Part shown: positions 23,900 to 44,426 of the stretch, in pieces | Numbering within the stretch: the stretch's first letter is position 1 | How the letters are laid out: each line of letters starts with the position of its first letter | From: Acidimicrobiia bacterium | Lineage (GTDB): Bacteria; Actinomycetota; Acidimicrobiia; IMCC26256; PALSA-610 | DNA length: 64,000 bases | Direction of reading: 5' to 3' | Assembly (NCBI GenBank): GCA_017882905.1 | Contig: JADGOO010000113.1 | Span: 372 to 64,371 of the forward strand | The notes under the pieces: generated by a model | The model's input: the letters and a program-made list of their open reading frames with translations, nothing else | Databases searched by the model: none | Told to the model about the DNA's origin: nothing | Translations under genes and position numbers: made by a program

Positions 23900-23900
23900 C

Positions 23901-24254
23901 ATGACCTTTGGGCGGAGGCTCCGGCGGCGCACGAGTGGCGTGGGCACGCTCTGGCCCGACACGACCGAGGCCCTCACCGAACCGACGCACGACACGAAGG
24001 CGATCGAAGACGCGCCGTCGCGCGTGCCGGTGCTCATCGGGGGGAAGATCAAGTCGGTGCGCGTGCAACCACTGGCCGGCGTGCCGACGCTGAAGGCGAC
24101 GATCTCGGACGACACCGGTCAGGTGACGATCGTGTTCCTCGGCCGGCGGCACGTGGCCGGCATCGAGACCGGGCGCAAGATCCTGTGCGAAGGCGTGATC
24201 GGCGAGCAGATGGGGCGCCGGCACATGCTCAACCCGGCGTACCGGTTGCTCTGA
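23901..24254 (+). CDS. OB-fold nucleic-acid-binding domain protein (RecG-wedge-like)
   Basis: LKATISDDTGQVTIVFLGRRHVAGIETG...LNPAYRL; 1 nt after the transporter stop. Confidence 0.75.
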   Translation: MTFGRRLRRRTSGVGTLWPDTTEALTEPTHDTKAIEDAPSRVPVLIGGKIKSVRVQPLAGVPTLKATISDDTGQVTIVFLGRRHVAGIETGRKILCEGVIGEQMGRRHMLNPAYRLL

Positions 24255-24278
24255 GGGCTCCCGCTCAACGGCCGACGT

Positions 24279-25823: not shown

Positions 25824-25895
25824 GCGGGCAACCTACGCGGCACTGGCGGCCGCGAGCGTTCGTACCCCCCTCGAGGCCGGCTCTAGGGTGCGAGT

Positions 25896-26393
25896 GTGTA
25901 CCGCCTGACGACGCGCATCGACGCGTCGTTCCTCGCCACGATGTTGCTCGAGGCAGCCTTCTGGCGCGGTGACGGCCGCCCGTCGGTGGAGCGCATGCTC
26001 GAAGATCGCGCCACCGCCCGCTACGTGGAGGGCTGGGGTCGACCCGGCGACGTGGCCCTCGCCGCGCTCGACGGCGACGACACGCCGGTCGGCGCGGCGT
26101 GGTATCGCCACTTCCGTGCCGACGACGCCGGATACGGCTTCGTGAGCGAAGACATCCCGGAGCTGTCGATCGGCGTGGCGCGCGAACACCGCGACCGGGG
26201 CGTCGGCTCGCTCCTCATCGGTTCGTTGCTCCAGCGCGCCCGCGCACGCGATGAGCGCGCGATGAGCTTGTCGGTCGACCGAGCGAATCCCGCCCGGGCT
26301 CTGTACGAGCGCTTCGGCTTTCGCGAACAAGACGGCAACCCCGCCGACACGTCGGTCATCATGATCATCGAGCTCACGGGAAGGCCCTTGTGA
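25896..26393 (+). CDS. GNAT N-acetyltransferase
   Basis: PELSIGVAREHRDRGVGSLL, LSVDRANPARALYERFGF. Confidence 0.85.
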   Translation: MYRLTTRIDASFLATMLLEAAFWRGDGRPSVERMLEDRATARYVEGWGRPGDVALAALDGDDTPVGAAWYRHFRADDAGYGFVSEDIPELSIGVAREHRDRGVGSLLIGSLLQRARARDERAMSLSVDRANPARALYERFGFREQDGNPADTSVIMIIELTGRPL

Positions 26394-26980
26394 GTGACGA
26401 ACCAGTTGAATTGGCGCGCACGCCGCGCGAGCGCTGGCGGGCCCGGCTCCCGCTGATCATCATCCTCGTGCTCACCTTGGCCGGCATCGGTGCCGTCTTC
26501 TACGGCATCGGCCACCAGAACACCTTGGAGCCCCTCGATCGCAGCTCGCAGGATCGGCTGAACGCGGCGTGCACGAGCGTGGTCACCCGCCTGCGCGCCC
26601 TGCCGCGCATCACGTCGCAATCCACGATCACTGAGCGAGCCGGTCGCGTCGACATCGAGAACACGATCTTCGAGACCATCGTGCGCACTGCCGAGTCGCT
26701 GCATCCCCCGAACCACGACGGCGCCGTCGCCTTGCGCGGCTGGACCGCAGACTGGAAGGCGCTGTTGGTGGCGCGCACGCGCTTCGCCACGGAGCTCCGC
26801 AGCCCGTCGACCGCCAAACCACAGCTGCTCCTGCCACTCGGTACGGCCGGCGCGCCGATCACCGAGCGCATGACCGAGTACGCGCGCACCCACAGCTTGC
26901 TGCAATGCGAGACCGATAACCTCCAGGCCGAGATCGTCGACGGCGATCGCCTGTACCCGACGAACCTGCAGAACGGCTGA
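26390..26980 (+). CDS. Hypothetical membrane-anchored protein
   Basis: One N-terminal TM helix, helical C-terminal domain with two Cys; overlaps both neighbours (GTGA, TGATG). Confidence 0.65.
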   Translation: MSDEPVELARTPRERWRARLPLIIILVLTLAGIGAVFYGIGHQNTLEPLDRSSQDRLNAACTSVVTRLRALPRITSQSTITERAGRVDIENTIFETIVRTAESLHPPNHDGAVALRGWTADWKALLVARTRFATELRSPSTAKPQLLLPLGTAGAPITERMTEYARTHSLLQCETDNLQAEIVDGDRLYPTNLQNG

Positions 26981-27750
26981 TGACCGGAAGACTCGACGGC
27001 AAGGTCGCACTCATCACGGGCGGCGCGAGCGGCATGGGCCGCGCCGCCTGCGAGCTGTTCGCGAGCGAAGGCGCCCGCATCGTGGTCGTCGACCTCGACG
27101 AGAAGGCCGGCACCGACCTCGCGACCACAATCGGTGAAAACGCCACGTTCGTGCGCGCCGACGTGTCACGCTCGGCCGACTGCGACGCGATGGTCGAGCA
27201 CGCCGTTGCCACGTTCGGCGGGCTGCACGTGCTCTACAACAATGCCGGAATCTTCCCCGCCGACGACGGTGGCGTGCTCGACACTCCCGAATCCACATGG
27301 GATCAGGTCATGGCCATCAACCTGAAAGGGGTCTGGCTCGGCTGCCGGTCCGGCATCCCGGCGATGGTCGAATCGGGCGGCGGATCCGTGATCAACGTGG
27401 CGTCGTTCGTGGCACTCATGGGCGCGGCAACCGCCCAGATCGCGTACACGTCGAGCAAGGGCGGCGTTTTGGCCATGACGCGCGAAATGGCCGTCGAATG
27501 GGCTCGAAAGGGCATTCGCGCCAATGCGCTGTGTCCGGGCCCGATCGAGACGCCGCTGCTCGAAGCGCTGCTGGCCGACCCCGCACGGCGAGCCCGGCGC
27601 ATGGTGCACATCCCGATGGGCCGCCTCGGCCGCGCCGAGGAGCTGGCCAAGGCTGCGCTCTTCCTTGCGAGCGATGATTCCTCGTTCATGACGGGGAGCG
27701 CGCTCGTGGTCGACGGTGGCATCACTGCCGCCTATGTGACCCCCGAGTAA
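26980..27750 (+). CDS. Short-chain dehydrogenase/reductase
   Basis: LITGGASGMG, YNNAG, YTSSKGG, NALCPGP, VDGG. Confidence 0.9.
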   Translation: MTGRLDGKVALITGGASGMGRAACELFASEGARIVVVDLDEKAGTDLATTIGENATFVRADVSRSADCDAMVEHAVATFGGLHVLYNNAGIFPADDGGVLDTPESTWDQVMAINLKGVWLGCRSGIPAMVESGGGSVINVASFVALMGAATAQIAYTSSKGGVLAMTREMAVEWARKGIRANALCPGPIETPLLEALLADPARRARRMVHIPMGRLGRAEELAKAALFLASDDSSFMTGSALVVDGGITAAYVTPE

Positions 27751-27849
27751 CTGCGCCGTTCTTCCTGTCGTAACGACATCGTCGCAAGCAATCCCCCCGA
27801 CTTCGTGCGATAGTTCCCGGAAGATTCGTCGCAAGAGGGGGGCTTCACC

Positions 27850-29535
27850 GTGGCGACCGACGCACCGGTTACCGTCAACGCGGACACGCAACGCCTACAC
27901 GAGATGGGCTATGCGCAAGAGCTCAGTCGCAAGATGGGCTGGTTCTCGAACTTCGCAATCTCGTTCTCGATCATCTCGATCCTGGCCGGGGCCATGACCA
28001 CCTACTGGCTGGGCATGCAGGCCGGTGGCCCCCGGGCGATCATGCTCGGCTGGATCATCGTCGGCTTCTTCTCGCTGCTCGTCGGCATGTCGATGGCCGA
28101 GATCTGCTCCACCTACCCGACTGCGGGCGGGCTCTACTACTGGTCGGCGAAGCTGGCACGGAAGAACGCCCCGGCATGGAGCTGGTTCACCGGCTGGTTC
28201 AACCTCATCGGCCTCATCGGCGTGATCGCATCGGTCGACTTCGCGCTCGCGACGTTCACGGGCTTCTTCATCCAGCTCTATCGCCCGAGCTTCGAGATCG
28301 CGGGCGCGACGGGCGCGCGCAACATCTTCTTGATCTTCTGCGCCTATCTCGTGATCCACGGTTTGTTGAACACGTTCCGGGTCGACATCGTGGCCAAGCT
28401 CGGCGACATCAGCGTCTGGTGGCACGTGATCGGCGTGCTCGTCATCTTCGTGATCCTCATCTTCGCCCCTGCACACCACCAGAGCGTCAGCTTCTTGTTC
28501 AAGTCGAAGAACCTCACCGGCTGGACGGGGCCATTCGCCGGGCTCTATGTGTTCGGCCTCGGCATGCTGCTCGCGCAGTACACGATCACCGGATTCGATG
28601 CGTCGGCGCACGTGAGTGAAGAGACGCACGGAGCGCACACGGAGGCGCCGAAGGCCATCGTGCGGGCGATCTACGTGTCGGCCATCGCCGCGTTCGTGCT
28701 CAACCTGGCGATGACACTCGCCATCCCGAAGGGCACCTTCGGCACCGGTTCGAGCGCAGTGCCCATGTACGACCACATCGGATTGATCGGCATCAACTCG
28801 GCACCCGAGCTCATCCGCCTCGCCGTGGGCGGTGCAGGCGCCAAGCTGTTGATCCTCATCTCGATCGTCGGCCAGTTCTTCTGCGGCATGGCGTCGGTCA
28901 CGGCGAGCTCACGAATGATCTACGCCTTCAGCCGTGACGGCGCGCTTCCGGGCCACAAGATCTGGCACCGCATCAACCCGAAGACGCGTACACCGACGAA
29001 CGGCGTGTGGCTCGCGGTGGTGCTCTCGGCGATCGTGGGTGCGTCGTCGCTGTACCAGAACCGTGGTGTGGCGATCGCGTTCTTCGCCATGACCGGCATC
29101 GCGGTGGTCGGGCTCTACATCGCCTACATCATCCCCGTGTATCTGCGGCTGCGGAACCGCGAGTTCCAGCAGGGCGAATGGCACCTCGGCAAGTACAGCC
29201 AGATCGTCGGGTGGACGGCCGTCGTGTGGGTCGTGATCGTCTCGATCTACTTCTTCATGCCGGTGTACCCGCTGATCCCGCGCCCGTGGGACGACTTCCA
29301 CGGATTCGCCAACGTGTTCAACTGGTCGGGTCCGCTGATCCTGCTGTCGTTCATCGCCGTGTCGATCTACTGGCTGGTCTCGGCCAAGAACTGGTTCCAG
29401 GGACCGCAGGTGCAAGGCACGCCCGAGGAGCTGCGCGCGATCGAGCGCGCGCTGGAGTTCGGCGATGTCGACGCCGTCCTCAAGCTCGAAGATGCCGAGG
29501 ACAAGCGGGTGACCGAGCACCAACAAGGTCACTGA
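27850..29535 (+). CDS. APC-family amino acid/amine permease (GABA/choline/polyamine type)
   Basis: FSNFAISFSIIS, AEICSTYPTAGGLYYWS, TGFDASAHVSEET, SRMIYAFSRDG. Confidence 0.9.
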   Translation: MATDAPVTVNADTQRLHEMGYAQELSRKMGWFSNFAISFSIISILAGAMTTYWLGMQAGGPRAIMLGWIIVGFFSLLVGMSMAEICSTYPTAGGLYYWSAKLARKNAPAWSWFTGWFNLIGLIGVIASVDFALATFTGFFIQLYRPSFEIAGATGARNIFLIFCAYLVIHGLLNTFRVDIVAKLGDISVWWHVIGVLVIFVILIFAPAHHQSVSFLFKSKNLTGWTGPFAGLYVFGLGMLLAQYTITGFDASAHVSEETHGAHTEAPKAIVRAIYVSAIAAFVLNLAMTLAIPKGTFGTGSSAVPMYDHIGLIGINSAPELIRLAVGGAGAKLLILISIVGQFFCGMASVTASSRMIYAFSRDGALPGHKIWHRINPKTRTPTNGVWLAVVLSAIVGASSLYQNRGVAIAFFAMTGIAVVGLYIAYIIPVYLRLRNREFQQGEWHLGKYSQIVGWTAVVWVVIVSIYFFMPVYPLIPRPWDDFHGFANVFNWSGPLILLSFIAVSIYWLVSAKNWFQGPQVQGTPEELRAIERALEFGDVDAVLKLEDAEDKRVTEHQQGH

Positions 29536-29572
29536 CCTGCCCGACGGCAATCTCGAAGGACTGCTCGATCGT

Positions 29573-30463
29573 GTGCCCGGCTGGAGCGGCCGGGCACACA
29601 TCGAGCGCGCCCTCGACGGCGGCATCACGAATCGCAACTACGTCGTCGTGTGCGGCGCGGACCGCTTCGTGCTGCGCGTGTGCGGAGACCGGACGAACCT
29701 CCTCGAGATCGACCGGATGCGCGAGCACGAAGCCGCGACACGCGCGGCCTCGCTCGGCATCGCACCTCGGGTGATCGAATGGGTCGAATCCGCGGGGCTG
29801 CTCGTCACCAGCTACATCCACGGCCGCACGATCACGCCCGCCGATCTCGCGTCGACCGACGGCCTCGCGGCTGTGTGCGCTGCGCTGCGCAAGTTCCACG
29901 CGTCGGGCCCGCTCTCCGGCGACTTCGATGCGTTTGTCGTGCCGTTCCTCCACCGGGAGGCCGCGGTGTCGTGCAACGTCGCGATCCCCGACGAGTTCGC
30001 CGCGGCTGAGCTGTGCGCCCGGCAGATCGCCGCCGCGTTCGCCGCTGATCCCGAACCGAAGATGGCGTGCCACAACGACTTGCTGAACGCGAACTTCCTG
30101 CGCGACGACACGCAGCTCTGGCTGCTCGACTGGGAGTACGCGGGCAACAACGACCGCTACTTCGACCTTGGGAACATGGCGGTGAACAACGACTTCGACG
30201 CCGATGCCGACGAAGCACTCGTGCTCGCGTACTTCGGGAGCGTCACGCGACGGCGCCTCGCGCGGCTGCGCCTGATGCGGATCATGAGCGACTTCCGTGA
30301 GGCGATGTGGGGCGTCGTGCAACAAGGACTGAGCACGCTCGAGTTCGACTACGTGAGCTACGCCGCCAAGCACTTCGACCGCCTGCTGTCGAACGCGACG
30401 ACACCCGGCTACCGTCGCTCGCTCGACGACGCCGCGACCCCCGACGCGGCGCCCGACACATGA
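29573..30463 (+). CDS. Choline/ethanolamine-kinase-like phosphotransferase
   Basis: GGITNRNY, CHNDLLNAN, LLDWEYAG..DRYFDLG; frame is open back to a stop at 29510, so a non-canonical upstream start is possible. Confidence 0.8.
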   Translation: MPGWSGRAHIERALDGGITNRNYVVVCGADRFVLRVCGDRTNLLEIDRMREHEAATRAASLGIAPRVIEWVESAGLLVTSYIHGRTITPADLASTDGLAAVCAALRKFHASGPLSGDFDAFVVPFLHREAAVSCNVAIPDEFAAAELCARQIAAAFAADPEPKMACHNDLLNANFLRDDTQLWLLDWEYAGNNDRYFDLGNMAVNNDFDADADEALVLAYFGSVTRRRLARLRLMRIMSDFREAMWGVVQQGLSTLEFDYVSYAAKHFDRLLSNATTPGYRRSLDDAATPDAAPDT

Positions 30464-30527
30464 CAGCTGACTGCTGACCACTGGACCCACTGAGGGGCGC
30501 GGCCGGCGCCCGAGATGGAGAGACGGC

Positions 30528-32987
30528 ATGCGGGAGCGGGCGCGCATCGTGATCGTGGGTGCCGGTGTGGCCGGCGCGTCGATCGCGTGGCACCTCGCCG
30601 AGCGCGGCGAGACCGACGTGCTGGTGGTGGAGCGCGCCGAGCCGACGAGCGGCAGCACGTTCCACTCGGCCGGTCTCGTGGGCCAGCTGCGGTCGTCACT
30701 CCCGCTCACCCGGATGATGATGCACAGCGTCGACGTGTATCGCAGGCTCGAAGCGGAAGCCGCCGAGACGGGACGCTCGCCCGGTTGGCGCGAAGTGGGC
30801 TCGTTGCGGCTGGCGTGCACGCCGCCCCGCATGGAGGAGCTCAGCCGCCAACACGGCTGGGCGAAGACCTTCGGACTCCCGATGGATCTGCTCACACCGT
30901 CGGAGTGCCAGGAGCGCTTCCCGTTGATGCGCAGCGACGACGTGCTCGGCGGAGTGTGGCTGCCCACTGATGGGTTCCTCGACCCATCCGGTCTCACCCA
31001 CGCGTTCCTCGGCGGCGCGCGCAGCCGCGGCGTCGAGGTGGCAAGCGGCGTGCGCGTGACGGGATTCGTGGTCGACCGCGGCCGCGTGCGCGCGGTCGTC
31101 ACCGACCACGGCACGATCGAATGCGACGCGTGTGTGCTCGCGTGCGGCATGTACACCTACGGCGTGGCCGCACTCGCGGGCGTGAACGTGCCGATCGTGC
31201 CGATGGCGCATCAGTACCTGATCACCAAGTCGGTGCCGGGAGTGTTCGACGAGCTGCCGCAGCTGCGCGACCCCGACAACCTCGTGTACTTCCGCCGTGA
31301 AGGCAACGGTCTCGTGCTCGGCGGCTACGAGCGCGAGCCGGCGCCGTGGTCGTTGCACGGCGTGCCCGACGACTTCAACAACAAGCTCCTGGCGGAGGAC
31401 TGGGACCGCTTCGCACCGTTGATGACGAACGCGTGCCGCCGGGTACCCGCGGCCGAGACGGCCGACATCGTGAGCCTGGTGAACGGACCGGAAGGCTTCA
31501 CGCCCGACAACGAGTTCGTGCTCGGTGAGAGCGACGTGCACGGCCTGTTCGTCGCCGCCGGCTTCTGCGCGCACGGCATCGCCGGCGCCGGCGGAGTGGG
31601 CCGCGTGCTGAGCGAATGGATCCTCGACGGCGGGCCGTCGATCGACTGTTGGAAGATGGACATCCGCCGCTTCGGCCGCCAGTACCGCGATCGGGGCTTT
31701 GCGCTCGCCCGCGCCGTCGAGGTGTACCGCACCTACTACGACATCCATTACCCGAACGAGGAGCGCCAGGCCGCTCGCCCCCTGCGGCGCTCGCCTGCCT
31801 TTGCGCGCCTGGCCGATCTCGGCTGCGCCTTCGGCGAGAAGTCGAGCTGGGAACGACCGAACTGGTTCGCGCCGAACGAGGCACGCGCGACCGACGAGGT
31901 GCCGCGGCCGCGCGGTTGGGCCGGTGAGCACTGGAGCCCGGCCATCGGTGCCGAGGCGCTCGCGGTGCGCGATTCGTGTGCGCTGTTCGACGAGACCAGC
32001 TTCTCGAAGCTCGAGATCACCGGCGGCGGCGCGCTCGCATTCCTCCAACGCGTGTGCGCGAACGACATCGACGTCGAAGTTGGCGGTGTGGTGTACACGC
32101 AGCTCTGCAACGAGCGCGGCGGCATCGAATGCGACCTCACCGTGACGCGCATCGGAGCCGAGCAGTTCTTCTTGGTGACGGGCACGGCGTTCGGGAACCA
32201 CGATCTCGGTTGGATCCGCACGCAGCTCGATCGCGTCGGCCCCGTCGACGCGCACGGTTACGACGTGGATGCGCACGACGTGACATCGGCCTGGGCCTGC
32301 TACGGCATCTGGGGCCCGCGCGCGCGTGACGTGCTCGCGCCCCTCACCACACACTCGCTCGGCAACGATGCTTTCCCGTATCTGCACGCGGCGCGCATCA
32401 GCATCGGGCCCGTGCCGGTCGTTGCCCTGCGCGTCACCTATGTGGGCGAGCTGGGCTGGGAGCTCTACTGCCCGAGCGAGTACGGCCTGACGCTGTGGGA
32501 CACGCTCTGGGCCGCCGGCGAAGCGCACGCGATGGTGGCCGGTGGGTACCGGGCCATCGACGCGTTGCGTGTGGAGAAGGGCTACCGCGTGTGGGGCTCC
32601 GACATCTCGCCCGACGACAACCCCTACGAAGCCGGCCTCGGCTTCGCCGTGGCGCTCGCCAAGCCGGGCGACTTCACGGGGCGTGCCGCGCTCGAAGCGG
32701 TGCGCCGCGACGGCCCGCGCCGGCGCTTGCGCGCGGTGGTGCTCGACGATCGCGAAGCCGTATGTCTCGGCAGCGAGCCGGTGCGCGTCGACGGCGTGAT
32801 CCAAGGACGCGTCACGAGCGGCGGCTACGGGTTCCGGGTGGGCGCGTCGATCGCCTATTGCTACGTACCGACCGAGCTCGCCGATCTGGGCCGTCGTGTC
32901 GAGGTCGAGGTGTTCGGCGAGTGGATCGGCGCCACGATCACCAAGGAACCGTTGTGGGATCCCTCCGGTGCCCGCATCCGAGCGTGA
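30528..32987 (+). CDS. GcvT-family FAD-dependent amine dehydrogenase (dimethylglycine/sarcosine dehydrogenase-like)
   Basis: IVGAGVAG, STFHSAG, GPEGFTPD, FGEKSSWERPNWF, RVTYVGELGWEL, LRVEKGY. Confidence 0.9.
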   Translation: MRERARIVIVGAGVAGASIAWHLAERGETDVLVVERAEPTSGSTFHSAGLVGQLRSSLPLTRMMMHSVDVYRRLEAEAAETGRSPGWREVGSLRLACTPPRMEELSRQHGWAKTFGLPMDLLTPSECQERFPLMRSDDVLGGVWLPTDGFLDPSGLTHAFLGGARSRGVEVASGVRVTGFVVDRGRVRAVVTDHGTIECDACVLACGMYTYGVAALAGVNVPIVPMAHQYLITKSVPGVFDELPQLRDPDNLVYFRREGNGLVLGGYEREPAPWSLHGVPDDFNNKLLAEDWDRFAPLMTNACRRVPAAETADIVSLVNGPEGFTPDNEFVLGESDVHGLFVAAGFCAHGIAGAGGVGRVLSEWILDGGPSIDCWKMDIRRFGRQYRDRGFALARAVEVYRTYYDIHYPNEERQAARPLRRSPAFARLADLGCAFGEKSSWERPNWFAPNEARATDEVPRPRGWAGEHWSPAIGAEALAVRDSCALFDETSFSKLEITGGGALAFLQRVCANDIDVEVGGVVYTQLCNERGGIECDLTVTRIGAEQFFLVTGTAFGNHDLGWIRTQLDRVGPVDAHGYDVDAHDVTSAWACYGIWGPRARDVLAPLTTHSLGNDAFPYLHAARISIGPVPVVALRVTYVGELGWELYCPSEYGLTLWDTLWAAGEAHAMVAGGYRAIDALRVEKGYRVWGSDISPDDNPYEAGLGFAVALAKPGDFTGRAALEAVRRDGPRRRLRAVVLDDREAVCLGSEPVRVDGVIQGRVTSGGYGFRVGASIAYCYVPTELADLGRRVEVEVFGEWIGATITKEPLWDPSGARIRA

Positions 32988-33038
32988 TATGCGACGCGGC
33001 GCACGTCGAGCCGTTCGGCCGGTGAGGAGCGATCGAAC

Positions 33039-34487
33039 ATGATCGTGCTCGCCATCGACCAAGGCACGTCGGCGACCAAGGCGCTCGTCGTCGACGAGCG
33101 GGGCGTGGTCATCGGTGCCGCCGAGCGTGATGTGGCCGTGGATGCACGATCCGACGGAGCGGTCGAGACCGACCCCGAAGGCCTGTGGCGCTCCGTCGTG
33201 GACGCCGGCCGCGCGGCGCTGGATGGCGCGGGCCGGCCGCGCGTCGACGCGATCGGCCTGGCGAACCAGGGCGAGACGGTCTTGGCATGGGATCAGGCCA
33301 CCACCGCGCCGCTCACGTCGGCCATCGTGTGGCAGGACCGCCGCGCCGCGCCGCTGTGCGAGCGGCTCGCCGCCGACGGCTGGGATGCGCGCTTGCGCGC
33401 GCTCACAGGCCTCGAGCTCGACCCCTACTTCAGCGCTCCGAAGCTGGCGTGGCTGCGCGCGTCGCTCACCCGAGACGGCGTGGCCGGCACGACCGACACG
33501 TGGTTGCTCCAGCGCCTCACCGGCGAGCTGGTCACCGACACGGCAACCGCGTCGCGGTCGCTGCTGCTCGATCTCGACACGGCGCGGTGGTCCGCTGAGG
33601 CGTGCGCCGCGTTCGCCATCGATCCCGCAACGTTGCCCCGCATCGTCGGCAACGCCGAGCCGATCGGCGCCACCGACGTCTTCTCGCCCGGGTTGGGGGT
33701 GCCCCTCACCGGTACGTGTGTCGACCAGCAAGCTGCGCTGTTCGCGCAGCGGTGCACGGAACCCGGCGACACGAAGTGCACCTACGGCACGGGGGCGTTC
33801 CTGCTCACGCAGACCGGCACGGTCGCGCGCCGCTCCACGAACGGCCTCGTGGCATGCGTCGCGTGGCAGCTGGCCGACGGTGTGCACTACTGCCTCGACG
33901 GGCAGGTGTACACGGTGGGCGCGGCGGTCGACTGGCTACGCACCGTCGGCCTCATCGAACACGCCCGCGATCTCGACGGCGTCGGCGCGCAGGTGGCCGA
34001 CACGGGCGGCGTGGTGTTCGTGGCCGGCTTGGCCGGGCTCGCCGCACCGTTCTGGCGACCGGGTGCGCACGGCGCGTTCACCGGCCTGACCCTCGCCACC
34101 ACGCGTGCCCACCTCGTGCGCGCGGCCGTCGAGGGCATCGCCGCGCAGGTCGCATGGCTCGCCCGGGCCGCGGCCGCCGACATGGGTGCGCCGCTCACGT
34201 GTCTGCGCGTCGACGGCGGCCTCACGCGCTCGCGGTTGCTGCTCCAGCTGCAGGCCGACTTGGCGCAGGTTCCGATCGAGGTGCACGACTCACCGCACGC
34301 CACCGCACTCGGCGTGGCCGCGTTCGCCCGGATCGGCGCGGGCGGGGCCGGCGACGCGGCTACCGCGTTCGGCGAAGGCGTCGACACGCGCCCGACCACC
34401 GTGATCGAGCCGGCGATCGGCCGGGCGGAAGCCGAGGCCCGCCTCGACGCATGGCGCACCGCAGCCGAAGGGACGGCCGAGCTGTGA
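33039..34487 (+). CDS. FGGY-family kinase, glycerol-kinase-like
   Basis: AIDQGTSAT, NQGET, WQDRR, DPYFSAPK, DQQAALF, KCTYGTGAF, VDGG. Confidence 0.88.
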   Translation: MIVLAIDQGTSATKALVVDERGVVIGAAERDVAVDARSDGAVETDPEGLWRSVVDAGRAALDGAGRPRVDAIGLANQGETVLAWDQATTAPLTSAIVWQDRRAAPLCERLAADGWDARLRALTGLELDPYFSAPKLAWLRASLTRDGVAGTTDTWLLQRLTGELVTDTATASRSLLLDLDTARWSAEACAAFAIDPATLPRIVGNAEPIGATDVFSPGLGVPLTGTCVDQQAALFAQRCTEPGDTKCTYGTGAFLLTQTGTVARRSTNGLVACVAWQLADGVHYCLDGQVYTVGAAVDWLRTVGLIEHARDLDGVGAQVADTGGVVFVAGLAGLAAPFWRPGAHGAFTGLTLATTRAHLVRAAVEGIAAQVAWLARAAAADMGAPLTCLRVDGGLTRSRLLLQLQADLAQVPIEVHDSPHATALGVAAFARIGAGGAGDAATAFGEGVDTRPTTVIEPAIGRAEAEARLDAWRTAAEGTAEL

Positions 34488-37216
34488 GCGACCCCGGCGC
34501 GCGCCGCACCGAACCGTTCGACGTGGCCGTGGTCGGCGCAGGGGTGGTGGGGACGGCGATCGCGCGCGAGCTCGCACAACGGGGCGCGCACGTACTGATC
34601 GTCGAGGGCGGACCCGACATCGGCGCGGGCACGAGCAAGGCGAACACCGCGATCCTTCACACAGGATTCGACGCCAAGCCCGACACGACCGAGGCGCGCC
34701 TCGTTGCCCGCGGCGCGACGCTCCTCGGCGCCTACGCAGAGCGACGCGGGATCGCGGTCGAGCGCACCGGCGCGTTGCTGGTGGCGTGGACCGAGGAACA
34801 GCTTGACACGCTCCCCCGCCTCGCCGAGCAAGCCGCGCAGAACGGCTACCGCCACACGCACCTCGTCGATCGTGGATCGCTCACGACACTCGAGCCCCAC
34901 CTCGGCGCCGGTGCACTCGGCGCGCTGGCCGTTCCCGACGAGGCCATCATCGACCCGTGGTCGCCGGTGATCGCGTTCGCCACTGACGCCGTGCTCGCCG
35001 GCGCGCAGCTCGTGCGCGGCGCGCCTCTTCACGCGATCGATCTCGCTGGTGCTCACCACACGTTGCACACACGCGACGAGTCGTTCACCGCGCGTTGGAT
35101 CGTGAACGCGGCCGGTCTGCACGCCGACGACGTGGATCGCCTCGCCGGGTTCTCCGCGTTCACCGTGACCGCGCGCCGCGGCGAGTTGATCGTGTTCGAC
35201 AAGCTGGCGCGCCGGCTCGTGCACCACATCCTGTTGCCTGTACCCACAGCCACGACCAAGGGCGTTCTCGTGAGCCCGACGGTGTTCGGCAACGTGGTGC
35301 TCGGACCGACCGCCGAGGACCTCGACGACAAGGACGACCGATCGACAAGTCGCGCCGGTCTCGACGGCCTGCTCGCCCACGGGCGGCGCATCGTGCCCGC
35401 GCTCGTCGACGAGGAGATCACCGCCACCTACGCCGGTCTGCGCGCCGCGACCGAGCAATCCGACTACCGGCTCGCGACCTACGCCGAGCAGCGGTGGATC
35501 ACGGCGGGCGGCATCCGCTCGACCGGGCTGACGGCGTCGATGGCGATCGCCGAGCACGTGGCCCGGGAGCTGGTGGGCGCGGGGCTGGCGCTCCGGCCGC
35601 GCGACGGCGACGGCAACGGCGACGGCGACGGCGCGTGGTCGGTGCCACCGCTCGGCGAGACGACGCGGCGGCCGCACGGCGACGCGGCGCGCATCGAGGC
35701 CGACCCCGCCTACGGCGAGATCGTGTGCCACTGCGAGCGGGTGACCGCCGGCGAGCTGCGCGATGCCTGGGCCAGCCCGATCCCGCCCGTCGACCTCGAC
35801 GGCCTCCGGCGCCGCACGCGCGTGCTCATGGGCCGCTGCCAGGGCTTCCACTGCGCCGCCGCCGCCCGCACACCCCCCGAGCCCCCGATGCGTCGCTCAC
35901 CCGCGTCTGGCGCGGGTGAGCGACGCATCGGTGGGGCGTCGGGGGCGGGGCGAGTCGATGTGCTGGTGGTCGGCGCCGGGCCCGCCGGCCTCAGCGCGGC
36001 CGCGCGGCTCGCCGCGGCCGGCGTGGCCGTGCTCGTCGTGGAACGGGCCGAGGCGCCCGGCGGCATCCCCCGCCACACCCACCATCAGGGCTTCGGCTGG
36101 CGCGACCTGCGTCGCAGCCTCACCGGGCCGCAGTACGCGGCGCGCCTCGCCGACCGCGCCGTGGCCGCCGGTGCCGCGATCGAGCTCGCAACCACGGCGG
36201 ACATCGCCAGTGACGCCTGGGCCGGAACGCGCGCGTTCGAGCTCACTGCGCCCGGCGGGCGGCGCCGCGTCGAGGCCGGCGCGGTCCTCCTCGCAACAGG
36301 CTGTCGTGAGCGACCGCGCAACGCGCGCCTCGTCCCCGGCGACCGGCCCGACGGTGTGCTCACCACGGGCGCGCTCCAGGTGCTGATCGATGCCGGACGG
36401 TTCCATGGTGCGCGCGCTGTCGTGGTGGGCGCGGAGCACGTGTCGTACTCGGCGGCGCTCACGTTGCGACATGCCGGTTGCGCGGTCGCGGCGATGGTCA
36501 CCACGGAACCGGGACCGCAGAGCTTCGCGGCGTTCGACGTGATCCGCCGCGTCGTGTGGCGCACTCCCCTGCTCACGCGCCGTGCACCGGCGCGCATCAA
36601 CGGTCGACACGGCCGGGTGGAAGCGGTCGTGCTCGACGACGGCCGCGTGATCGAGTGCGACACGGTCGTGTTCAGTGGCGATTGGATACCAGACCATGAG
36701 CTCGCCCGCCGCGGCGGGATCGGCATCGATGCGCCAACCCGTGGCCCGTCGGTCGACATCGCGCTGCGCACGCGCACACCGGGCGTGTTCGCAGCCGGCA
36801 ACCTGTTGCACGCGGCGGCGACCGCCGATGTGTGCGCGCTCGACGGCCGTCATGTGGCCGCGGCCATCACCGCATGGCTCGGCGACGGTCGCTGGCCCGA
36901 GGCGCCGGTGGCGATCACCGCCGAGGCACCGTTCGCGTGGGTCAGCCCGAACCGTCTCTCCCCGGGCGGGAGCACTCTGCGCTCGCCGAACGGTCGCCTC
37001 CTCGCCCTGCCCGGCGCCGGTCGCGGCCCCGGCGGCGCCGGAGCGGGTCCCGGCCACCCCGGTCGGGCCACCCGCGTGGTGACCGTCGCACAGCACGGTC
37101 GGGTGCTCTGGCACGGCCGCCGGCGCCTCGTGGCGAACCGCCTCGTAAGCATCCCCGACGGTTGGCTGGCCGCCGTCGACCCGGATCTCGGAGCCGTCCG
37201 TGTCTCGGCCTCGTAG
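34484..37216 (+). CDS. Fusion: GlpA-like FAD oxidoreductase + BFD-like [2Fe-2S] domain + pyridine-nucleotide-disulphide-type oxidoreductase (910 aa)
   Basis: VVGAGVVG, GTSKANTAILH, CHCERVT, MGRCQGFHC, then a second VVGAGPAG, LLATGCRER, FAAGNLLH, all in one frame. Confidence 0.8.
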   Translation: MSDPGARRTEPFDVAVVGAGVVGTAIARELAQRGAHVLIVEGGPDIGAGTSKANTAILHTGFDAKPDTTEARLVARGATLLGAYAERRGIAVERTGALLVAWTEEQLDTLPRLAEQAAQNGYRHTHLVDRGSLTTLEPHLGAGALGALAVPDEAIIDPWSPVIAFATDAVLAGAQLVRGAPLHAIDLAGAHHTLHTRDESFTARWIVNAAGLHADDVDRLAGFSAFTVTARRGELIVFDKLARRLVHHILLPVPTATTKGVLVSPTVFGNVVLGPTAEDLDDKDDRSTSRAGLDGLLAHGRRIVPALVDEEITATYAGLRAATEQSDYRLATYAEQRWITAGGIRSTGLTASMAIAEHVARELVGAGLALRPRDGDGNGDGDGAWSVPPLGETTRRPHGDAARIEADPAYGEIVCHCERVTAGELRDAWASPIPPVDLDGLRRRTRVLMGRCQGFHCAAAARTPPEPPMRRSPASGAGERRIGGASGAGRVDVLVVGAGPAGLSAAARLAAAGVAVLVVERAEAPGGIPRHTHHQGFGWRDLRRSLTGPQYAARLADRAVAAGAAIELATTADIASDAWAGTRAFELTAPGGRRRVEAGAVLLATGCRERPRNARLVPGDRPDGVLTTGALQVLIDAGRFHGARAVVVGAEHVSYSAALTLRHAGCAVAAMVTTEPGPQSFAAFDVIRRVVWRTPLLTRRAPARINGRHGRVEAVVLDDGRVIECDTVVFSGDWIPDHELARRGGIGIDAPTRGPSVDIALRTRTPGVFAAGNLLHAAATADVCALDGRHVAAAITAWLGDGRWPEAPVAITAEAPFAWVSPNRLSPGGSTLRSPNGRLLALPGAGRGPGGAGAGPGHPGRATRVVTVAQHGRVLWHGRRRLVANRLVSIPDGWLAAVDPDLGAVRVSAS
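35603..35632. repeat. 6-bp tandem repeat (GACGGC)x5 encoding DGDGNGDGDG
   Basis: gacggc gacggc aacggc gacggc gacggc. Confidence 0.8.
35874..35945. repeat. Long palindrome in frame at the fusion junction
   Basis: Perfect 21-bp arms at 35885-35905 and 35911-35931, loop TCTGG, imperfect C/G extension. Confidence 0.9.
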
Positions 37217-37246
37217 GCTCGGCCGCCAGTGCGAAGGGGGAAGCCC

Positions 37247-38629
37247 ATGACCGTTCCCGGCATGCTCGACGCGACGGAGCTCGCCGACCACATCCGTAGC
37301 GGCGCGATCGACACGGTGCTGGTGGTGTTCCCCGACCTGCAGGGGCGCCTCATGGGCAAGCGCGTCACGGGCCACTTCTGGCTCGAGCAGATGCGCGGTG
37401 GTCAGGGCGAGATCCACGCGTGCAACTACCTGCTCGCGGTCGACTCCGAGATGACGGTGCTCCCCGACTACCGCTACGCGAACTGGGACACCGGCTACGG
37501 CGACTTCGCGCTCGCGCCCGACCTCACCACGATCCGCCTCATCCCATGGCTCGAAGCGACCGCCCTCGTGATGTGCGACGTGGCCGACGAGCGCTCGGGC
37601 GCGCCGGTCGAGGTGTCACCGCGCCGCATCCTGCAACGGCAGGTGGAGCGCGCCGCGGCACTCGGCTACTCCGTCTACATGGGCTCCGAGCTCGAGTTCC
37701 TACTGTTCCGCGAAACGCTCGAAGAGGCGGCCGAGAAGCACTACACCGATCTCGCGCCACTCTCCAACGTCGTGCTCGATTACCACATCCTGCAGACCAC
37801 GCGCGACGAGTCGATCATCCGAGCGATCCGCAACGGGATGGACGGCGCAGGCGTACCCGTCGAGTTCAGCAAGGGTGAAGCCGAGAAGGGCCAGCACGAG
37901 ATCAACCTCTCGTACGCCGACGCGGTGACGATGGCCGACCGTCACGTGATCTACAAGAACGGCGCCAAGGAGATCGCACACCAGCACGGCCATGCGATCA
38001 CGTTCATGGCGAAGTACGACATCGACATGGTCGGATCGTCGTGTCACGTGCACTCGAGCGTGTGGAACGCCGACGGCTCGAAGTCGTTGATGTGGAGCGA
38101 CGACGGACCGCATCACCAATCCGAGGTCACCCAGGGCTGGCTCGGCGGCCTCATCGCCACCGGCCGCGAGCTCGCATGGATGCACGCCCCCACGGTCAAC
38201 TCGTACAAGCGTTACCAGCCCGAGTCCTGGGCGCCGACGGCGCTCGTCTGGGGCGAAGACAATCGCACGTGCGGGTTCCGCATGGTGGGCCACGGTCAGG
38301 GGTTCCGCGTGGAGTCACGCATCCCGGGCGCCGACGCCAACCCGTACCTCTCGTTCGCGGCCACGATCGCCGCGGGGTTGCACGGCATCGAGCTCGGGAT
38401 CACGCCCGGGTCGGTGTTCGCCGGCAACGCCTATGCCGCGCCCGACATCGCGCGCGTCCCGTGGAACATCGTGGAATCCATCGAGGAGTTCGAGCACTCG
38501 AAGGTTGCGATCGCCGCCTTTGGCGACGACGTGCACTACCACCTGTTGAACACCGCCCGGCAGGAATGGCGTGCGTTCAATCGTCACGTCACCGACTGGG
38601 AACGTCGGAGGAACTTCGACCAATGGTGA
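37247..38629 (+). CDS. Glutamine-synthetase-like gamma-glutamyl-amine ligase (PuuA/GlnA4 type)
   Basis: PDLQGRLMGKR, ELEF, GQHEIN, GSSCHVH, WGEDNRT, ESRIPGADANPY. Confidence 0.88.
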   Translation: MTVPGMLDATELADHIRSGAIDTVLVVFPDLQGRLMGKRVTGHFWLEQMRGGQGEIHACNYLLAVDSEMTVLPDYRYANWDTGYGDFALAPDLTTIRLIPWLEATALVMCDVADERSGAPVEVSPRRILQRQVERAAALGYSVYMGSELEFLLFRETLEEAAEKHYTDLAPLSNVVLDYHILQTTRDESIIRAIRNGMDGAGVPVEFSKGEAEKGQHEINLSYADAVTMADRHVIYKNGAKEIAHQHGHAITFMAKYDIDMVGSSCHVHSSVWNADGSKSLMWSDDGPHHQSEVTQGWLGGLIATGRELAWMHAPTVNSYKRYQPESWAPTALVWGEDNRTCGFRMVGHGQGFRVESRIPGADANPYLSFAATIAAGLHGIELGITPGSVFAGNAYAAPDIARVPWNIVESIEEFEHSKVAIAAFGDDVHYHLLNTARQEWRAFNRHVTDWERRRNFDQW

Positions 38630-38638
38630 GCACACACC

Positions 38639-38689
38639 CGAACATGCGTCAGAATCCGCGCAGCACACGGGGGAGCTGACGCATGTTCG
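38639..38689. repeat. 51-bp REP-like palindromic element, copy 2 (diverged); contains the RBS and ATG of the next gene
   Basis: cgaacatgcgtcag-N23-ctgacgcatgttcg: perfect 14-bp arms, same length and arm consensus as the other copies. Confidence 0.75.
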
Positions 38690-39435
38690 ATGGGAGACCG
38701 CTTGTTGGGCTCACCGCGCGGCGTCTCGCGCAAGGTCGCGTCTCGGGTTGGCAATCGGCCGGTAGCGGTGAGCGCGCGGGCTACATGGACCGCGTGCGCG
38801 CGGCCGGTGGCCTTCCGGTGCTCCTCGATCCCGCCCCCGGCGCCGCAGGTGACGCCGAAGACCTCGTGGCACGCCTCGATGCCCTCGTGCTCACGGGCGG
38901 TCCCGACGTGGAACCGTCGCGTTACGGGCAGGCCGCGCACGACAGCGTGTACGGCACCGATGCGCACGTCGACGACTTCGAGACGGCGATCACGCGTGCG
39001 GCGCTCGCCGCGCGCCTACCCGTGCTCGCCATCTGTCGGGGCATCCAAGTGCTCAACGTCGTGTGCGGCGGCACCCTGTACCAGCACATCCCCGACCGGC
39101 CCGGCGTGGAGCCCCACGGCCGTCCGGGTGAGCGCGACGGTGAGCGCATCCAGCGGATCGACATCGTCGGCGACTCTCGCCTGGCGCGAGTGATGGGCAC
39201 CACGGAGCCGATGTGCTCGTGTCACCACCATCAAGCAGTGGATCAATTGGGTGACGGGCTGCGAGTGGTCGGCCGCGCGGCTGACGGTGTGGTCGAGGCG
39301 ATCGAATTGATCGATCCCGGCGTGCCCGTGCTCGCCGTGCAATGGCATCCGGAAGACACCGCCGCGAACGACCCGGCCCAGCAAGCACTCTTCGACGCGG
39401 TGGTTGCCGATGCTCGCGCGGTGCACCACCATTGA
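38683..39435 (+). CDS. Gamma-glutamyl-gamma-aminobutyrate-hydrolase-like peptidase C26 (PuuD type)
   Basis: LVLTGGPDV, AICRGIQVLNV..GGTL, HHQAV, AVQWHPE. Confidence 0.88.
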   Translation: MFDGRPLVGLTARRLAQGRVSGWQSAGSGERAGYMDRVRAAGGLPVLLDPAPGAAGDAEDLVARLDALVLTGGPDVEPSRYGQAAHDSVYGTDAHVDDFETAITRAALAARLPVLAICRGIQVLNVVCGGTLYQHIPDRPGVEPHGRPGERDGERIQRIDIVGDSRLARVMGTTEPMCSCHHHQAVDQLGDGLRVVGRAADGVVEAIELIDPGVPVLAVQWHPEDTAANDPAQQALFDAVVADARAVHHH

Positions 39436-40073
39436 GCCACGGTCCCCAACCGCGGCGGCTCGCCGGCGCGGTCGTCGCAGTGCTCCTCGCGGCCTCGTGC
39501 CGGGGTGGCGGCCCGGCCGCGGCCCCGGCGGCGACGCGCACCATCACGGTCGCCGGCCACGCGGCAACCGAGACCGGGAACGGCACCACAGCGATCGTGC
39601 TCGTGCACGGCGCGTCGACCCACAAGGATTCGTGGTACCCGCTCATGCCGGCCCTCGCGAGCGCGGGATACACGGCGTTGGCGCTCGACTTGGGCTCCGA
39701 CCGCGCCGGAGCCGTGCAGGCCGCGGTCACCTACGTGCGCGCCCACGGTTCGCGCACTGTGGTGCTCATGGGCTCGTCACTCGGCGCGCAGAACGCGCTC
39801 GACGCGTCGCAACACGGTGACTACGCCGCGGTCGTCACGTTCTCGGCAGTCACCGCGGTGACGACGCACCTGCCCGTGCTCGCCATTGCATCGCGCGATG
39901 ATCCCACCGCCGACACGGTTTCCATCGCCCACCAGATCGTGGCGGGCTCCGGTACCGGGAGCGAGACGTTCGTCGTGACGGGTTCCACGCACGGTGTGGC
40001 ACTCGTGCCGAAGCATCCCGAGGCGGTCAAGGAGCTCCTGCGGTGGCTGCACGGCGAGCTGCTCGCGCACTGA
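39432..40073 (+). CDS. Small alpha/beta-hydrolase-fold lipoprotein
   Basis: TTG start overlapping the upstream stop, lipobox-like LAASC, VHG, MGSSLGA, HG. Confidence 0.65.
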   Translation: MSHGPQPRRLAGAVVAVLLAASCRGGGPAAAPAATRTITVAGHAATETGNGTTAIVLVHGASTHKDSWYPLMPALASAGYTALALDLGSDRAGAVQAAVTYVRAHGSRTVVLMGSSLGAQNALDASQHGDYAAVVTFSAVTAVTTHLPVLAIASRDDPTADTVSIAHQIVAGSGTGSETFVVTGSTHGVALVPKHPEAVKELLRWLHGELLAH

Positions 40074-44393: not shown

Positions 44394-44426
44394 GACGGTC
44401 GTCAGCCCTTCAGGTCACCCGGTGGC

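Follow-up and report, generated by a model that had tools for sequence, protein, structure and literature searches.

The eight co-directional genes at positions 26980-39435 of the window (the whole stretch of 64,000 nucleotides that was analysed) form three separable modules and not one pathway. The locus can be read as a GlnA4-type operon of an Acidimicrobiia-like actinobacterium for the breakdown of ethanolamine via gamma-glutamyl intermediates, carrying inserted modules, a reading which, taken together with the substrates it would assign, we regard as evenly poised between right and wrong. The inserted part is a block of five genes between the SDR gene and the ligase gene and comprises two separately conserved, uncharacterised modules, namely module A (APC permease, kinase and DMGDH-like enzyme) and module B (FGGY kinase and fused flavoenzyme). 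What was observed directly is the gene content, the intactness of the genes, their modularity and their recurrent co-location, and we prefer to see the locus as a hub of modules serving amino alcohols and glycerol instead of a single linear pathway.

Genes of the locus and the gamma-glutamylation core

All eight plus-strand genes of the initial annotation are intact and of the families given there, with full-length domain matches throughout (Pfam and NCBIfam profiles), and the spacing between them ranges from a 4-base overlap to 99 bp. Since the genes for a GNAT acetyltransferase and a 196-aa protein overlap head-to-tail into the SDR gene, the unit probably begins at 25896 and these two genes (25896-26980) probably belong to it. 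The features are as follows:

25896..26393, plus strand: GNAT acetyltransferase (Pfam Acetyltransf_1, 1.1e-12), its stop overlapping the start of the next gene
26390..26980, plus strand: 196-aa membrane-anchored protein with one N-terminal membrane helix, family-less
26980..27750, plus strand: SDR, presumed gamma-glutamyl-amino-alcohol dehydrogenase (adh_short_C2, 7.5e-68)
27850..29535, plus strand: APC-superfamily permease, presumed amino-alcohol importer (AA_permease_2, 4e-58; TIGR00907, 349 bits)
29573..30463, plus strand: small-molecule kinase of the choline/ethanolamine kinase family (APH and Choline_kinase Pfam matches)
30528..32987, plus strand: DMGDH/oxidase-like FAD enzyme with folate-binding GcvT domain, putative N-demethylase (DAO, FAO_M, GCV_T and GCV_T_C)
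33039..34487, plus strand: glycerol-kinase-like FGGY protein from a subfamily that has Gly where GlpK has Arg83 (TIGR01311, 426 bits)
34484..37216, plus strand: fused flavoenzyme with a G3P-oxidase-like DAO domain, a BFD [2Fe-2S] domain and an NADH-oxidase-type Pyr_redox_2 domain (Pfam, NCBIfam)
37229..38629, plus strand: GS-like gamma-glutamyl-amine ligase, GlnA4-like by context (Gln-synt_C, 2.2e-93)
38683..39435, plus strand: peptidase C26 gamma-glutamyl hydrolase (Peptidase_C26, 9e-59)

No informative promoter, terminator or riboswitch signals were found at the locus. The arrangement of the genes is more than chance; parts of it are found again in many independent genomes and contigs.

The core of the operon, as read here, comprises the genes for GNAT, the membrane-anchored protein, SDR, GS-like ligase and C26 hydrolase. 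SDR, GS and C26 genes are adjacent in most of the 20 loci of relatives that were examined. The C26 gene lies 3′ of the GS gene in all 20, and SDR homologues (72-82% identical) lie directly 5′ of the GS gene or of the inserted block in 18, other DNA separating SDR and GS genes in the two remaining loci (L025, L029). Homologues of the 196-aa protein (33-44% identity), which has no Pfam match at E 0.01, stand immediately 5′ of the SDR gene in 10 of the 20 relatives, and GNAT homologues just 5′ of the SDR cluster in seven. The GS-like ligase has matches of 64-82% identity over most of its length in 26 of 40 related genomes, and weaker or broken ones in four more of the 40. Its matches in the PDB are 11zs (5.1e-132) and 5dm3 (4.8e-111), and it stays below the cut-off of every NCBIfam equivalog. 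The C26 hydrolase carries the ICRG nucleophile and WHPE motifs.

In Streptomyces the GlnA4 cluster SCO1610-SCO1615 consists of the orf1 membrane protein, an SDR, an aldehyde dehydrogenase, glnA4, a regulator, a permease and an amidotransferase (Krysenko et al. 2019, PMC6529630). GlnA4 is a demonstrated gamma-glutamylethanolamide synthetase (PMC6529630), and the GlnA4-type ethanolamine route is also known from Phaeobacter (PMC10132767) and has been predicted for Chromohalobacter salexigens. Both clusters encode a GS-like ligase along with an SDR, a membrane protein (the 196-aa protein taking the position of orf1), a permease of the amino-acid/ethanolamine type and a class-I amidotransferase/C26 hydrolase, and both would follow gamma-glutamylation logic. 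The earlier proposal that GS-like ligase, C26 hydrolase and SDR constitute a gamma-glutamylation module is thus supported by a conserved locus core as well as by the match to the published layout. In contrast to Streptomyces, the locus has neither an aldehyde dehydrogenase nor an EpuRI-type regulator, begins with the GNAT gene and has five extra genes between the SDR and the predicted ligase. The missing aldehyde dehydrogenase had been pointed out before and is indeed not encoded anywhere on the contig; about ten paralogues are found elsewhere in the genome, unlinked. In the putrescine (Puu) pathway of E. coli the GS-like ligase PuuA and the C26 hydrolase PuuD bracket the oxidation steps. Both families are also present here, but PuuB and PuuC are not, and the ligase scores 194 bits with the gamma-glutamylputrescine synthetase model against a cut-off of 650.

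The kinase and putative demethylase module

The best NCBIfam match of the permease is TIGR00907, below the cut-off of this model, which we take to be an amino acid/choline transporter family. Permease orthologues (57-81% identity) accompany the kinase-DMGDH pair in L016, L028, L034 and L116 and the FGGY-fused pair in L128. The kinase (PF01633, 71.5 bits against a cut-off of 29; PDB 3dxq, 3.2e-36) has the motifs HNDLLNAN (HxDxxxxN) and LLDWEYAG (DWEY). The DMGDH-like enzyme shares the full four-domain architecture of rat DMGDH (4pab, 8.5e-161) and Arthrobacter DMGO (1pj5, 8.7e-146).

In about 60 of 80 loci, drawn from Actinomycetota, Chloroflexota and Pseudomonadota, the gene for the DMGDH-like enzyme has the kinase gene immediately 5′ of it, and the kinase is present in 18 of 151 genomes of the taxonomic order of the host; a second DMGDH-like paralogue of this genome (C172, 37% identity) has no kinase partner. 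Unlike DMGDH and DMGO, the enzyme is from a clade with a genetic link to a choline/ethanolamine-type kinase, and it probably acts on a phosphate ester and not on a carboxylate. In all other genomes of the order for which both positions are known (G013, G027, G030, G034) the kinase-DMGDH pair lies at most 3.5 kb from the GS gene, which makes the suggested demethylation step feeding the ligase plausible. Two gammaproteobacterial loci (L055, L103) likewise have GS-like genes near the pair. Annotated alphaproteobacterial operons combine a DeoR regulator, a betaine/choline-type ABC importer, the kinase and an FAD oxidoreductase; in the Ruegeria operon the next gene encodes an IMPase-family phosphatase, and ORF clustering gave the same for L038, L043, L057 and L104.

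We found no published description of a kinase-demethylase module of this kind in the literature. One experimental precedent supports kinase-primed demethylation in module A: in the choline:THF system of Eubacterium limosum (MthK/MthB/MthC/MthA) the substrate of MthB is phosphocholine (Jiang et al. 2025, PMC12155760). As proposed for module A, a kinase makes the phosphate ester of an amino alcohol, the ester is demethylated and the methyl group passes to tetrahydrofolate. However, the Mth system uses a corrinoid/MttB-family demethylase on a quaternary compound in an anaerobe, whereas a flavin and a GcvT domain (DMGDH-type) are used here, and the two kinases belong to different families. By established flavin-amine chemistry, oxidation by the DMGDH-like enzyme is restricted to secondary or tertiary amines.

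The glycerol-kinase-like protein and the fused flavoenzyme

The FGGY protein stays below the cut-off of the GlpK equivalog TIGR01311 (590 bits) and is 36-38% identical to E. coli GlpK, compared with 48.6% for the canonical GlpK (C42) that the genome encodes in addition, together with GlpD. It reads NQGET in place of NQRET, Arg83 being replaced by Gly, and Gly244 by Val; E84, W103, Y135, D245 and F270 are kept, so that five of the six glycerol-site residues checked are retained. Arg83 is a glycerol-binding residue of glycerol kinase (PMC2680290), and Gly occupies this position in all 37 readable FGGY homologues that are partners of the fused enzyme. The remaining 150 genomes sampled from the order contain no close FGGY orthologue (best matches 41-47%, the level of canonical GlpK), and the FGGY-fused pair was seen within the order only in this genome.

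The likely start of the fused gene is a GTG at 34484 overlapping the FGGY stop (GTGA), which gives a protein of 910 aa; judged from the sequence, the two genes are translationally coupled. The fusion is real, since homologues of similar length (about 900 aa) number more than 100, and the enzyme is paired with a Gly83 FGGY protein in every context found. It matches the Mycoplasma type II G3P oxidase (PDB 4x9m, 1.1e-34), of which the DAO domain retains H51, K258 and R320 in the alignment, and the NCBIfam models nearest to this domain are those of G3P oxidase and L-2-hydroxyglutarate oxidase and not those of amine oxidases. Its DAO, BFD and NADH-oxidase architecture corresponds to the Thermococcus-type G3PDH/NOX/MOX system ('GlpTk'), the genes of which are fused in protists (PMC11962113). 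Module B thus resembles GlpK plus GlpTk, a kinase with a DAO-family dehydrogenase having Fe-S and an NADH-oxidase-type electron outlet, but no third (MOX/DUF1667-type) component was found and the transporter is an APC-type permease instead of GlpF.

Such a permease stands beside the FGGY-fused pair in about 31 of about 41 loci with sufficient upstream DNA, and no glycerol facilitator is among the recurrent neighbours at the approximately 41 loci. A DeoR regulator (GlpR-like) is often present, and many soil contigs have a DeoR regulator and a permease of their own, this soil-type permease being nearest to the putative urea-carboxylase-associated permease family. Because Arg83 is absent, the score is below the GlpK equivalog cut-off, the genome has a canonical GlpK and GlpD and the partner is an APC-type permease, plain glycerol is not secure as the FGGY substrate.

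Modularity, alternatives and the proposed route

The synteny survey proposed with the initial annotation gave a divided answer: sub-arrangements do recur in independent genomes, but as three modules, each of which is found without the others. Most relatives have the core alone. The core occurs with APC-kinase-DMGDH in L016, L028 and L034, and with APC-FGGY-fused but without kinase-DMGDH in L128; L116 has APC-kinase-DMGDH-FGGY-fused (53-81% identity) without the core, L124 and L115 have DMGDH-FGGY-fused-GS, and L117 has FGGY-fused-GS-C26. The FGGY-fused pair is next to the GS route in this locus, L128, L124, L115, L117, L150 and L203, next to kinase-DMGDH in this locus, L116, L124 and L115, and beside eut genes in L121. 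The single linear route once envisaged, with import, demethylation, glutamylation and kinase/flavin oxidation of one carbinol, is unsupported, as the modules occur separately.

In a sharper version of that initial proposal, a linear pathway could nevertheless be thought of for an N-methylated amino-propanediol (such as N-methylserinol or N-methyl-3-amino-1,2-propanediol), although we consider it unlikely. The two kinases would phosphorylate the methylated and the unmethylated amino-diol, the DMGDH-like enzyme would demethylate, and the fused DAO enzyme would oxidise the phospho-amino-diol at the N- or O-bearing carbon to triose phosphate and ammonium, with the gamma-glutamyl module as a parallel or detoxifying branch. 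The coreless arrangement in L116 looks self-sufficient in this sense, and the invariable loss of the cationic Arg83, with Glu84 kept, is a change that a substrate with ammonium instead of hydroxyl would favour; the APC-type permease in place of a glycerol facilitator, the separate canonical GlpK and GlpD, and a DAO family that covers oxidisers of amines and alcohols are also consistent with it. However, in L122 the FGGY-fused pair has a sugar ABC transporter and a GH13 glycosidase as neighbours and no amine permease, in L120 it stands alone, the DAO domain is nearest to the hydroxy-acid and G3P oxidase models named above, and the soil-type permease, given its nearest family, need not carry an amine. 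Moreover, kinase-DMGDH and FGGY-fused are each widespread without the other, and we know of no abundant natural source of N-methylated amino-propanediols.

Standing alone in many genomes, the modules might instead form a mosaic without metabolic coupling, in which an ordinary alternative glycerol operon (FGGY and G3P dehydrogenase) and a demethylation module for some unrelated N-methyl compound have landed within an amine-glutamylation operon by horizontal transfer and share only a promoter. The absence of a close FGGY orthologue from the rest of the order and the uneven GC content (0.65 across APC-kinase, 0.745 across FGGY-fused, mean about 0.70) fit this improbable explanation. Against it speak the insertion within an operon, where genes overlap or stand 12 bp apart, the proximity of kinase-DMGDH to GS genes in every genome of the order with both positions known and in L055 and L103, and the fact that FGGY-fused adjoins three mechanistically different amino-alcohol modules (GS route, kinase-DMGDH, eut) in different lineages. 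Since 18 of the 20 relatives lack an aldehyde dehydrogenase next to the core, the substrate of the core may also be something other than ethanolamine, or its route may have another end. That it serves a secondary amino alcohol (1-amino-2-propanol) or a polyamine supplied by the demethylase seems very unlikely to us. A ketone-forming SDR step would make the aldehyde dehydrogenase dispensable, and the GS-like protein reaches no equivalog cut-off; but membrane protein, SDR, ligase and amidotransferase match the Streptomyces ethanolamine cluster, if not in identical gene order, the genome holds the unlinked aldehyde dehydrogenases, and the marine contig L150 has the order SDR (52%)-AldDH-GS (44%)-APC, divergent beside FGGY-fused.

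Under the GlnA4-type reading, for and against which the chances appear about equal, N-methylethanolamines would be phosphorylated and demethylated into the gamma-glutamyl ethanolamine route while module B handles glycerol or an analogue. The substrates and the sequence of the steps are all inferred. The substrate brought in by the permease, with N-methyl- or N,N-dimethylethanolamine as the likeliest candidates, would be an N-methylated amino alcohol, which the kinase would O-phosphorylate and the flavin/folate enzyme would strip of methyl groups to give methylene-THF. A phosphatase would then release ethanolamine, the GS-like ligase would join it to glutamate, the SDR and an aldehyde dehydrogenase would oxidise the gamma-glutamyl adduct, and the C26 enzyme would hydrolyse the product to glutamate and glycine; phosphatase and aldehyde dehydrogenase would both be unlinked, neither being on this contig. 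In module B the Gly83 FGGY protein would phosphorylate either glycerol or one of its close analogues, and oxidation of the phosphate ester to triose phosphate would fall to the fused DAO-[2Fe-2S]-NADH-oxidase-type enzyme. If this is true, the operon uses parts of phospholipid head groups and backbone; the head-group link suggested at the outset is plausible. PLC-like phosphoesterases, read from the sequence, lie near the FGGY-fused pair in some loci.

Gene content and gamma-glutamyl core

Ten intact and co-directional genes were called at the locus from open reading frames, GC content at third codon positions and family scans (Pfam, NCBIfam):

25896-26393, plus strand: GNAT gene, overlapping head-to-tail with the next gene
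26390-26980, plus strand: 196-aa single-helix membrane protein, overlapping the SDR gene
26980-27750, plus strand: SDR, full-length domain match
27850-29535, plus strand: APC permease, full-length domain match
29573-30463, plus strand: choline/ethanolamine-kinase-like protein, PF01633 and catalytic motifs
30528-32987, plus strand: DMGDH-like enzyme, DAO, FAO_M, GCV_T and GCV_T_C in a single chain
33039-34487, plus strand: glycerol-kinase-like FGGY protein, full-length domain match
best start GTG at 34484, plus strand: fused DAO, BFD [2Fe-2S] and Pyr_redox_2 protein of 910 aa, start overlapping the FGGY stop
37229-38629, plus strand: GS-like ligase, Gln-synt_C
38683-39435, plus strand: C26 hydrolase, full-length domain match

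The eight genes from the SDR onwards, whose families the initial annotation had named, were confirmed by these analyses, and every one of them has a full-length domain match and the expected catalytic motifs. Since the GNAT and membrane protein genes overlap head-to-tail into the SDR gene, the operon unit probably comprises all ten genes. A Pfam search gave no family for the 196-aa membrane protein. An Rfam search of positions 24000-41000 matched no family, and a promoter and terminator scan returned counts at the level of shuffled controls. As judged from the DMGDH-like gene the closest relatives are Acidimicrobiia MAGs (73-78% identity).

The GS-like protein was used as query against 40 related genomes, and about 18 kb around it was read in 20 of them. 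SDR, ligase and C26 hydrolase genes are immediate neighbours in most of these 20 loci; the 196-aa membrane protein precedes the SDR in 10 and a GNAT gene lies close by in 7. The ligase itself matches Gln-synt_C (2.2e-93) and the solved GS-like proteins 11zs (5.1e-132) and 5dm3 (4.8e-111), the latter of which we take to be a Chromohalobacter ethanolamine-pathway enzyme, and it scores below every NCBIfam equivalog cut-off, including the one for gamma-glutamylputrescine synthetase. The published layout of the Streptomyces cluster, in which GlnA4 is a demonstrated gamma-glutamylethanolamide synthetase (PMC6529630), has an adjoining SDR and a gamma-glutamyl hydrolase/amidotransferase, and both are also present here. 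The GlnA4-type cluster has in addition an adjacent aldehyde dehydrogenase converting gamma-glutamylacetaldehyde to gamma-glutamylglycine, whereas the core of the window lacks one. As the initial annotation had observed this enzyme is absent, and we found none on the entire contig. Of the 20 relatives, 18 likewise have no such gene next to the core; its absence is a lineage trait and not an accident of the window. A separate gamma-glutamylation module is encoded elsewhere in the genome (C106:15292-17169), where another GS-like gene (34% identity) has a further C26 hydrolase gene (40%) immediately 3′ of it.

Kinase and DMGDH-like enzyme

Between the SDR and the ligase a choline/ethanolamine-type kinase precedes the DMGDH-like gene. 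The kinase scores 71.5 bits with PF01633 (cut-off 29) and contains both catalytic motifs, HxDxxxxN (HNDLLNAN at residue 167) and D-x-E-Y (LLDWEYAG); its partner has the complete DAO, FAO_M, GCV_T and GCV_T_C architecture of the dimethylglycine dehydrogenase/oxidase family. The same arrangement, with or without the APC permease, is found between SDR and ligase in four other Acidimicrobiia loci (L016, L028, L034 and L035). We scanned one genome per species and examined the best 80 loci. In about 60 of these 80, which belong to Actinomycetota, Chloroflexota, Alpha- and Gammaproteobacteria and others, the kinase gene is located immediately 5′ of the DMGDH-like gene. Annotated alphaproteobacterial operons contain, in this order, a DeoR regulator, a betaine/choline-type ABC importer, the kinase and the FAD oxidoreductase, and in Ruegeria the next gene 3′ encodes an inositol-monophosphatase-family phosphatase, as it does by ORF clustering in L038, L043, L057 and L104. 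Within the order the kinase was found in 18 of 151 sampled genomes, and in all four order genomes where both positions are known it lies at most 3.5 kb from the GS gene. These synteny data support the view that kinase and demethylase form a unit whose product would enter the gamma-glutamyl route.

The conserved kinase partner argues for a substrate of the DMGDH-like enzyme which is probably not dimethylglycine or sarcosine; the second DMGDH paralogue of the genome (C172, 37% identity) is without a kinase partner. Direct demethylation of choline or phosphocholine was rejected on grounds of flavin chemistry, since flavin-type amine oxidation needs a lone pair, which quaternary amines do not have. 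The most economical proposal would be that N-methyl- and N,N-dimethylethanolamine are the substrates and are demethylated as phosphate esters. The kinase-DMGDH pair is often duplicated among the loci scanned, which fits two demethylation steps in succession. There is an experimental precedent for phosphorylation preceding demethylation in Eubacterium limosum (PMC12155760), although the enzymes involved are unrelated to the pair described here. A literature search on a kinase plus DMGDH pathway or on N-methylethanolamine catabolism gave no relevant description, and we regard the pair, though widespread, as a good candidate for a pathway not yet described.

Two kinase and two DMGDH-like genes are present in many proteobacterial and actinobacterial loci (L056, L065, L085, L089-L091, L104, L106). 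In Nonomuraea gerenzanensis (L204, NZ_LT559118.1:4546874-4569165) the kinase is divergent from a DMGDH-like gene of 54.5% identity; its record, of 11.85 Mb and nearly without annotation, is designated a "plasmid".

Glycerol-kinase-like FGGY and fused flavoenzyme

The new element at the locus is the FGGY kinase, which has a glycine at the position of Arg83 of glycerol kinase, together with its fused dehydrogenase. Searches of 151 genomes of the order for the FGGY protein gave no close orthologue in any other genome, the best matches being 41-47% identical, which is the level of canonical GlpK; the pair is the part peculiar to the window. The GC content of the locus is uneven, with 0.65 across APC permease and kinase and 0.745 across the FGGY-flavoenzyme pair (about 70% for the window), and this unevenness, along with the rarity of the pair in the order, points to an assembly of the locus by gene transfer. 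A metagenome scan for homologues of the fused enzyme identified the closest ones (53-66% identity) on metagenomic contigs in the same context, while more distant homologues retain the pair in other settings.

Gene contexts of the FGGY-flavoenzyme pair in homologous loci ("fused", fused flavoenzyme)
L116: APC-kinase-DMGDH-FGGY-fused, without ligase
L124, L115: DMGDH-FGGY-fused-GS
L117: FGGY-fused-GS-C26
L128: SDR-APC-FGGY-fused-GS-C26, without kinase and DMGDH
L150, L203 (aquatic lineage): FGGY-fused pair divergent from APC-GS-AldDH-SDR
L121:3046-14876 (Anaerolineales): APC permease, Gly83 FGGY, PEMT-family (phospholipid methyltransferase-like) gene, fused flavoenzyme, EutN, EutA, EutB
Phycicoccus contig: FGGY-fused pair 3′ of a sugar ABC transporter and a GH13 enzyme

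Many soil contigs carry a DeoR/GlpR-like regulator, an APC-type permease, the FGGY kinase, DAO/BFD and Pyr_redox_2, the last two often as separate genes. Just 5′ of such a unit we noticed, reading the sequence by eye, an alpha/beta hydrolase in L174, L179 and L198 and a putative PLC/acid-phosphatase-type phosphoesterase in L133, L174 and L198.

We consider it more likely that the pair acts on glycerol or a neutral analogue than on an amino-glycerol such as serinol or 3-amino-1,2-propanediol. The best solved relatives of the FGGY protein are glycerol kinases, and the glycerol site is retained at five of the six positions checked (E84, W103, Y135, D245, F270). In the DAO domain H51, K258 and R320 of Mycoplasma GlpO (G3P oxidase), presumably the substrate-site residues of the type II G3P oxidase (4x9m), are all identical in the alignment, and S47 aligns with Thr. 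The fused enzyme moreover shares its architecture with the Thermococcus-type G3PDH/NADH-oxidase system, the genes of which occur as fusions in protists (PMC11962113). The DAO catalytic, BFD Fe-S and Pyr_redox_2 parts of this GlpTk/NOX/MOX type are all present, but its third, MOX/DUF1667-type component was not detected by Pfam in the 910-aa protein or in the neighbouring genes.

Against plain glycerol speaks the replacement of Arg83 by Gly, which is shared by the window protein and all 37 readable partners of the flavoenzyme; Gly244 is replaced by Val as well. In glycerol kinase Arg83 forms a domain-closing salt bridge and contacts the hydroxyls of glycerol through charge-dipole and dipole-dipole interactions (PMC2680290). 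The FGGY protein also scores below the GlpK equivalog cut-offs (TIGR01311, 426 vs 590 bits; NF000756, 384 vs 498). The genome has, furthermore, a canonical GlpK (C42:3177-4685, NQRET motif, 48.6% identity to E. coli) and a GlpD with DAO_C domain (C179), and a role of the FGGY protein as housekeeping glycerol kinase was rejected. Finally, the usual transporter partner of the pair is not a facilitator but an APC-type permease, which adjoins it in about 31 of the roughly 41 loci that have sufficient upstream sequence (table count); in a stricter count on called ORFs (n=23) it is on the same strand in 12 and divergent in 2. Since these arguments stand side by side we retain both readings. An amino-glycerol kinase with a deaminating phospho-amine dehydrogenase, within a self-contained N-methylated amino-propanediol route and a general amino-alcohol hub, seems improbable to us. 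Were it true, serinol or 3-amino-1,2-propanediol would enter via the APC permease and be phosphorylated and oxidised to DHAP or glyceraldehyde-3-phosphate and ammonium, the five-gene block including kinase and DMGDH would constitute the self-contained route, and the entire operon would serve as a general hub of amino-alcohol assimilation.

At C179:13221-17980 some 3 kb separate the canonical GlpD from a third FGGY paralogue, in which Glu84 and Tyr135 of glycerol kinase are lacking. The canonical GlpK gene stands alone beside a putative phosphofructokinase-like gene, as read from the sequence.

Proposed working of the operon and its neighbourhood

The initial annotation had proposed a single linear catabolic route in which the eight genes degrade an N-methylated amino-alcohol or amino-polyol. 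The synteny agrees with one part of this proposal, N-demethylation supplying gamma-glutamylation, but not with eight steps in a single line on one carbinol: the survey resolved three modules, the core and the two enzyme pairs, which occur alone as well as in every pairwise combination, and both pairs are recurrently inserted into or beside amino-alcohol operons. Ethanolamine and its N-methylated forms would be imported by the APC permease, and kinase and DMGDH-like enzyme would convert the methylated forms to phosphoethanolamine, transferring the methyl groups to folate. Ethanolamine might then be freed by an unlinked phosphatase; the genome has one IMPase-family gene, on contig C252. Ligase, SDR, an unlinked aldehyde dehydrogenase and the C26 hydrolase could together yield glycine and glutamate, and the FGGY-flavoenzyme pair would convert glycerol or an analogue to triose phosphate.

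The commonest membrane lipids are built from ethanolamine, its N-methylated forms and glycerol, and their turnover therefore links carbon, nitrogen and phosphorus cycling. The locus carries two uncharacterised but testable enzyme pairs and is a compact test bed for both: a kinase-primed flavin/folate N-demethylation occurring in several phyla, for which we found no describing paper, and a widespread glycerol-kinase-like subfamily in which a key glycerol ligand has been lost and which is invariably accompanied by a fused G3P-dehydrogenase-like enzyme. Because both unproven pairs are joined to the GlnA4 route, the end of which is already partly understood, the predicted intermediates are directly testable.

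Upstream of the cluster and on the same strand there is a second, unusually long APC-type permease (730 aa) with a 117-aa ORF (21707-24254), separated from the cluster by an alpha/beta hydrolase on the minus strand (24279-25823). Downstream, positions 43482-49322 encode a luciferase-like monooxygenase, two SDRs and two AMP-binding ligases (45223-46776 and 47772-49322). In L117 and L115 the C26 gene is followed by a similar set (MFS, luciferase-like, AMP-binding, SDR), so that conservation of the cluster extends to this neighbourhood. Further downstream are a saccharopine-dehydrogenase-like gene (50149-51357) and, on the minus strand, another FGGY kinase (51432-52946), which is unrelated to the glycerol-kinase-like one.
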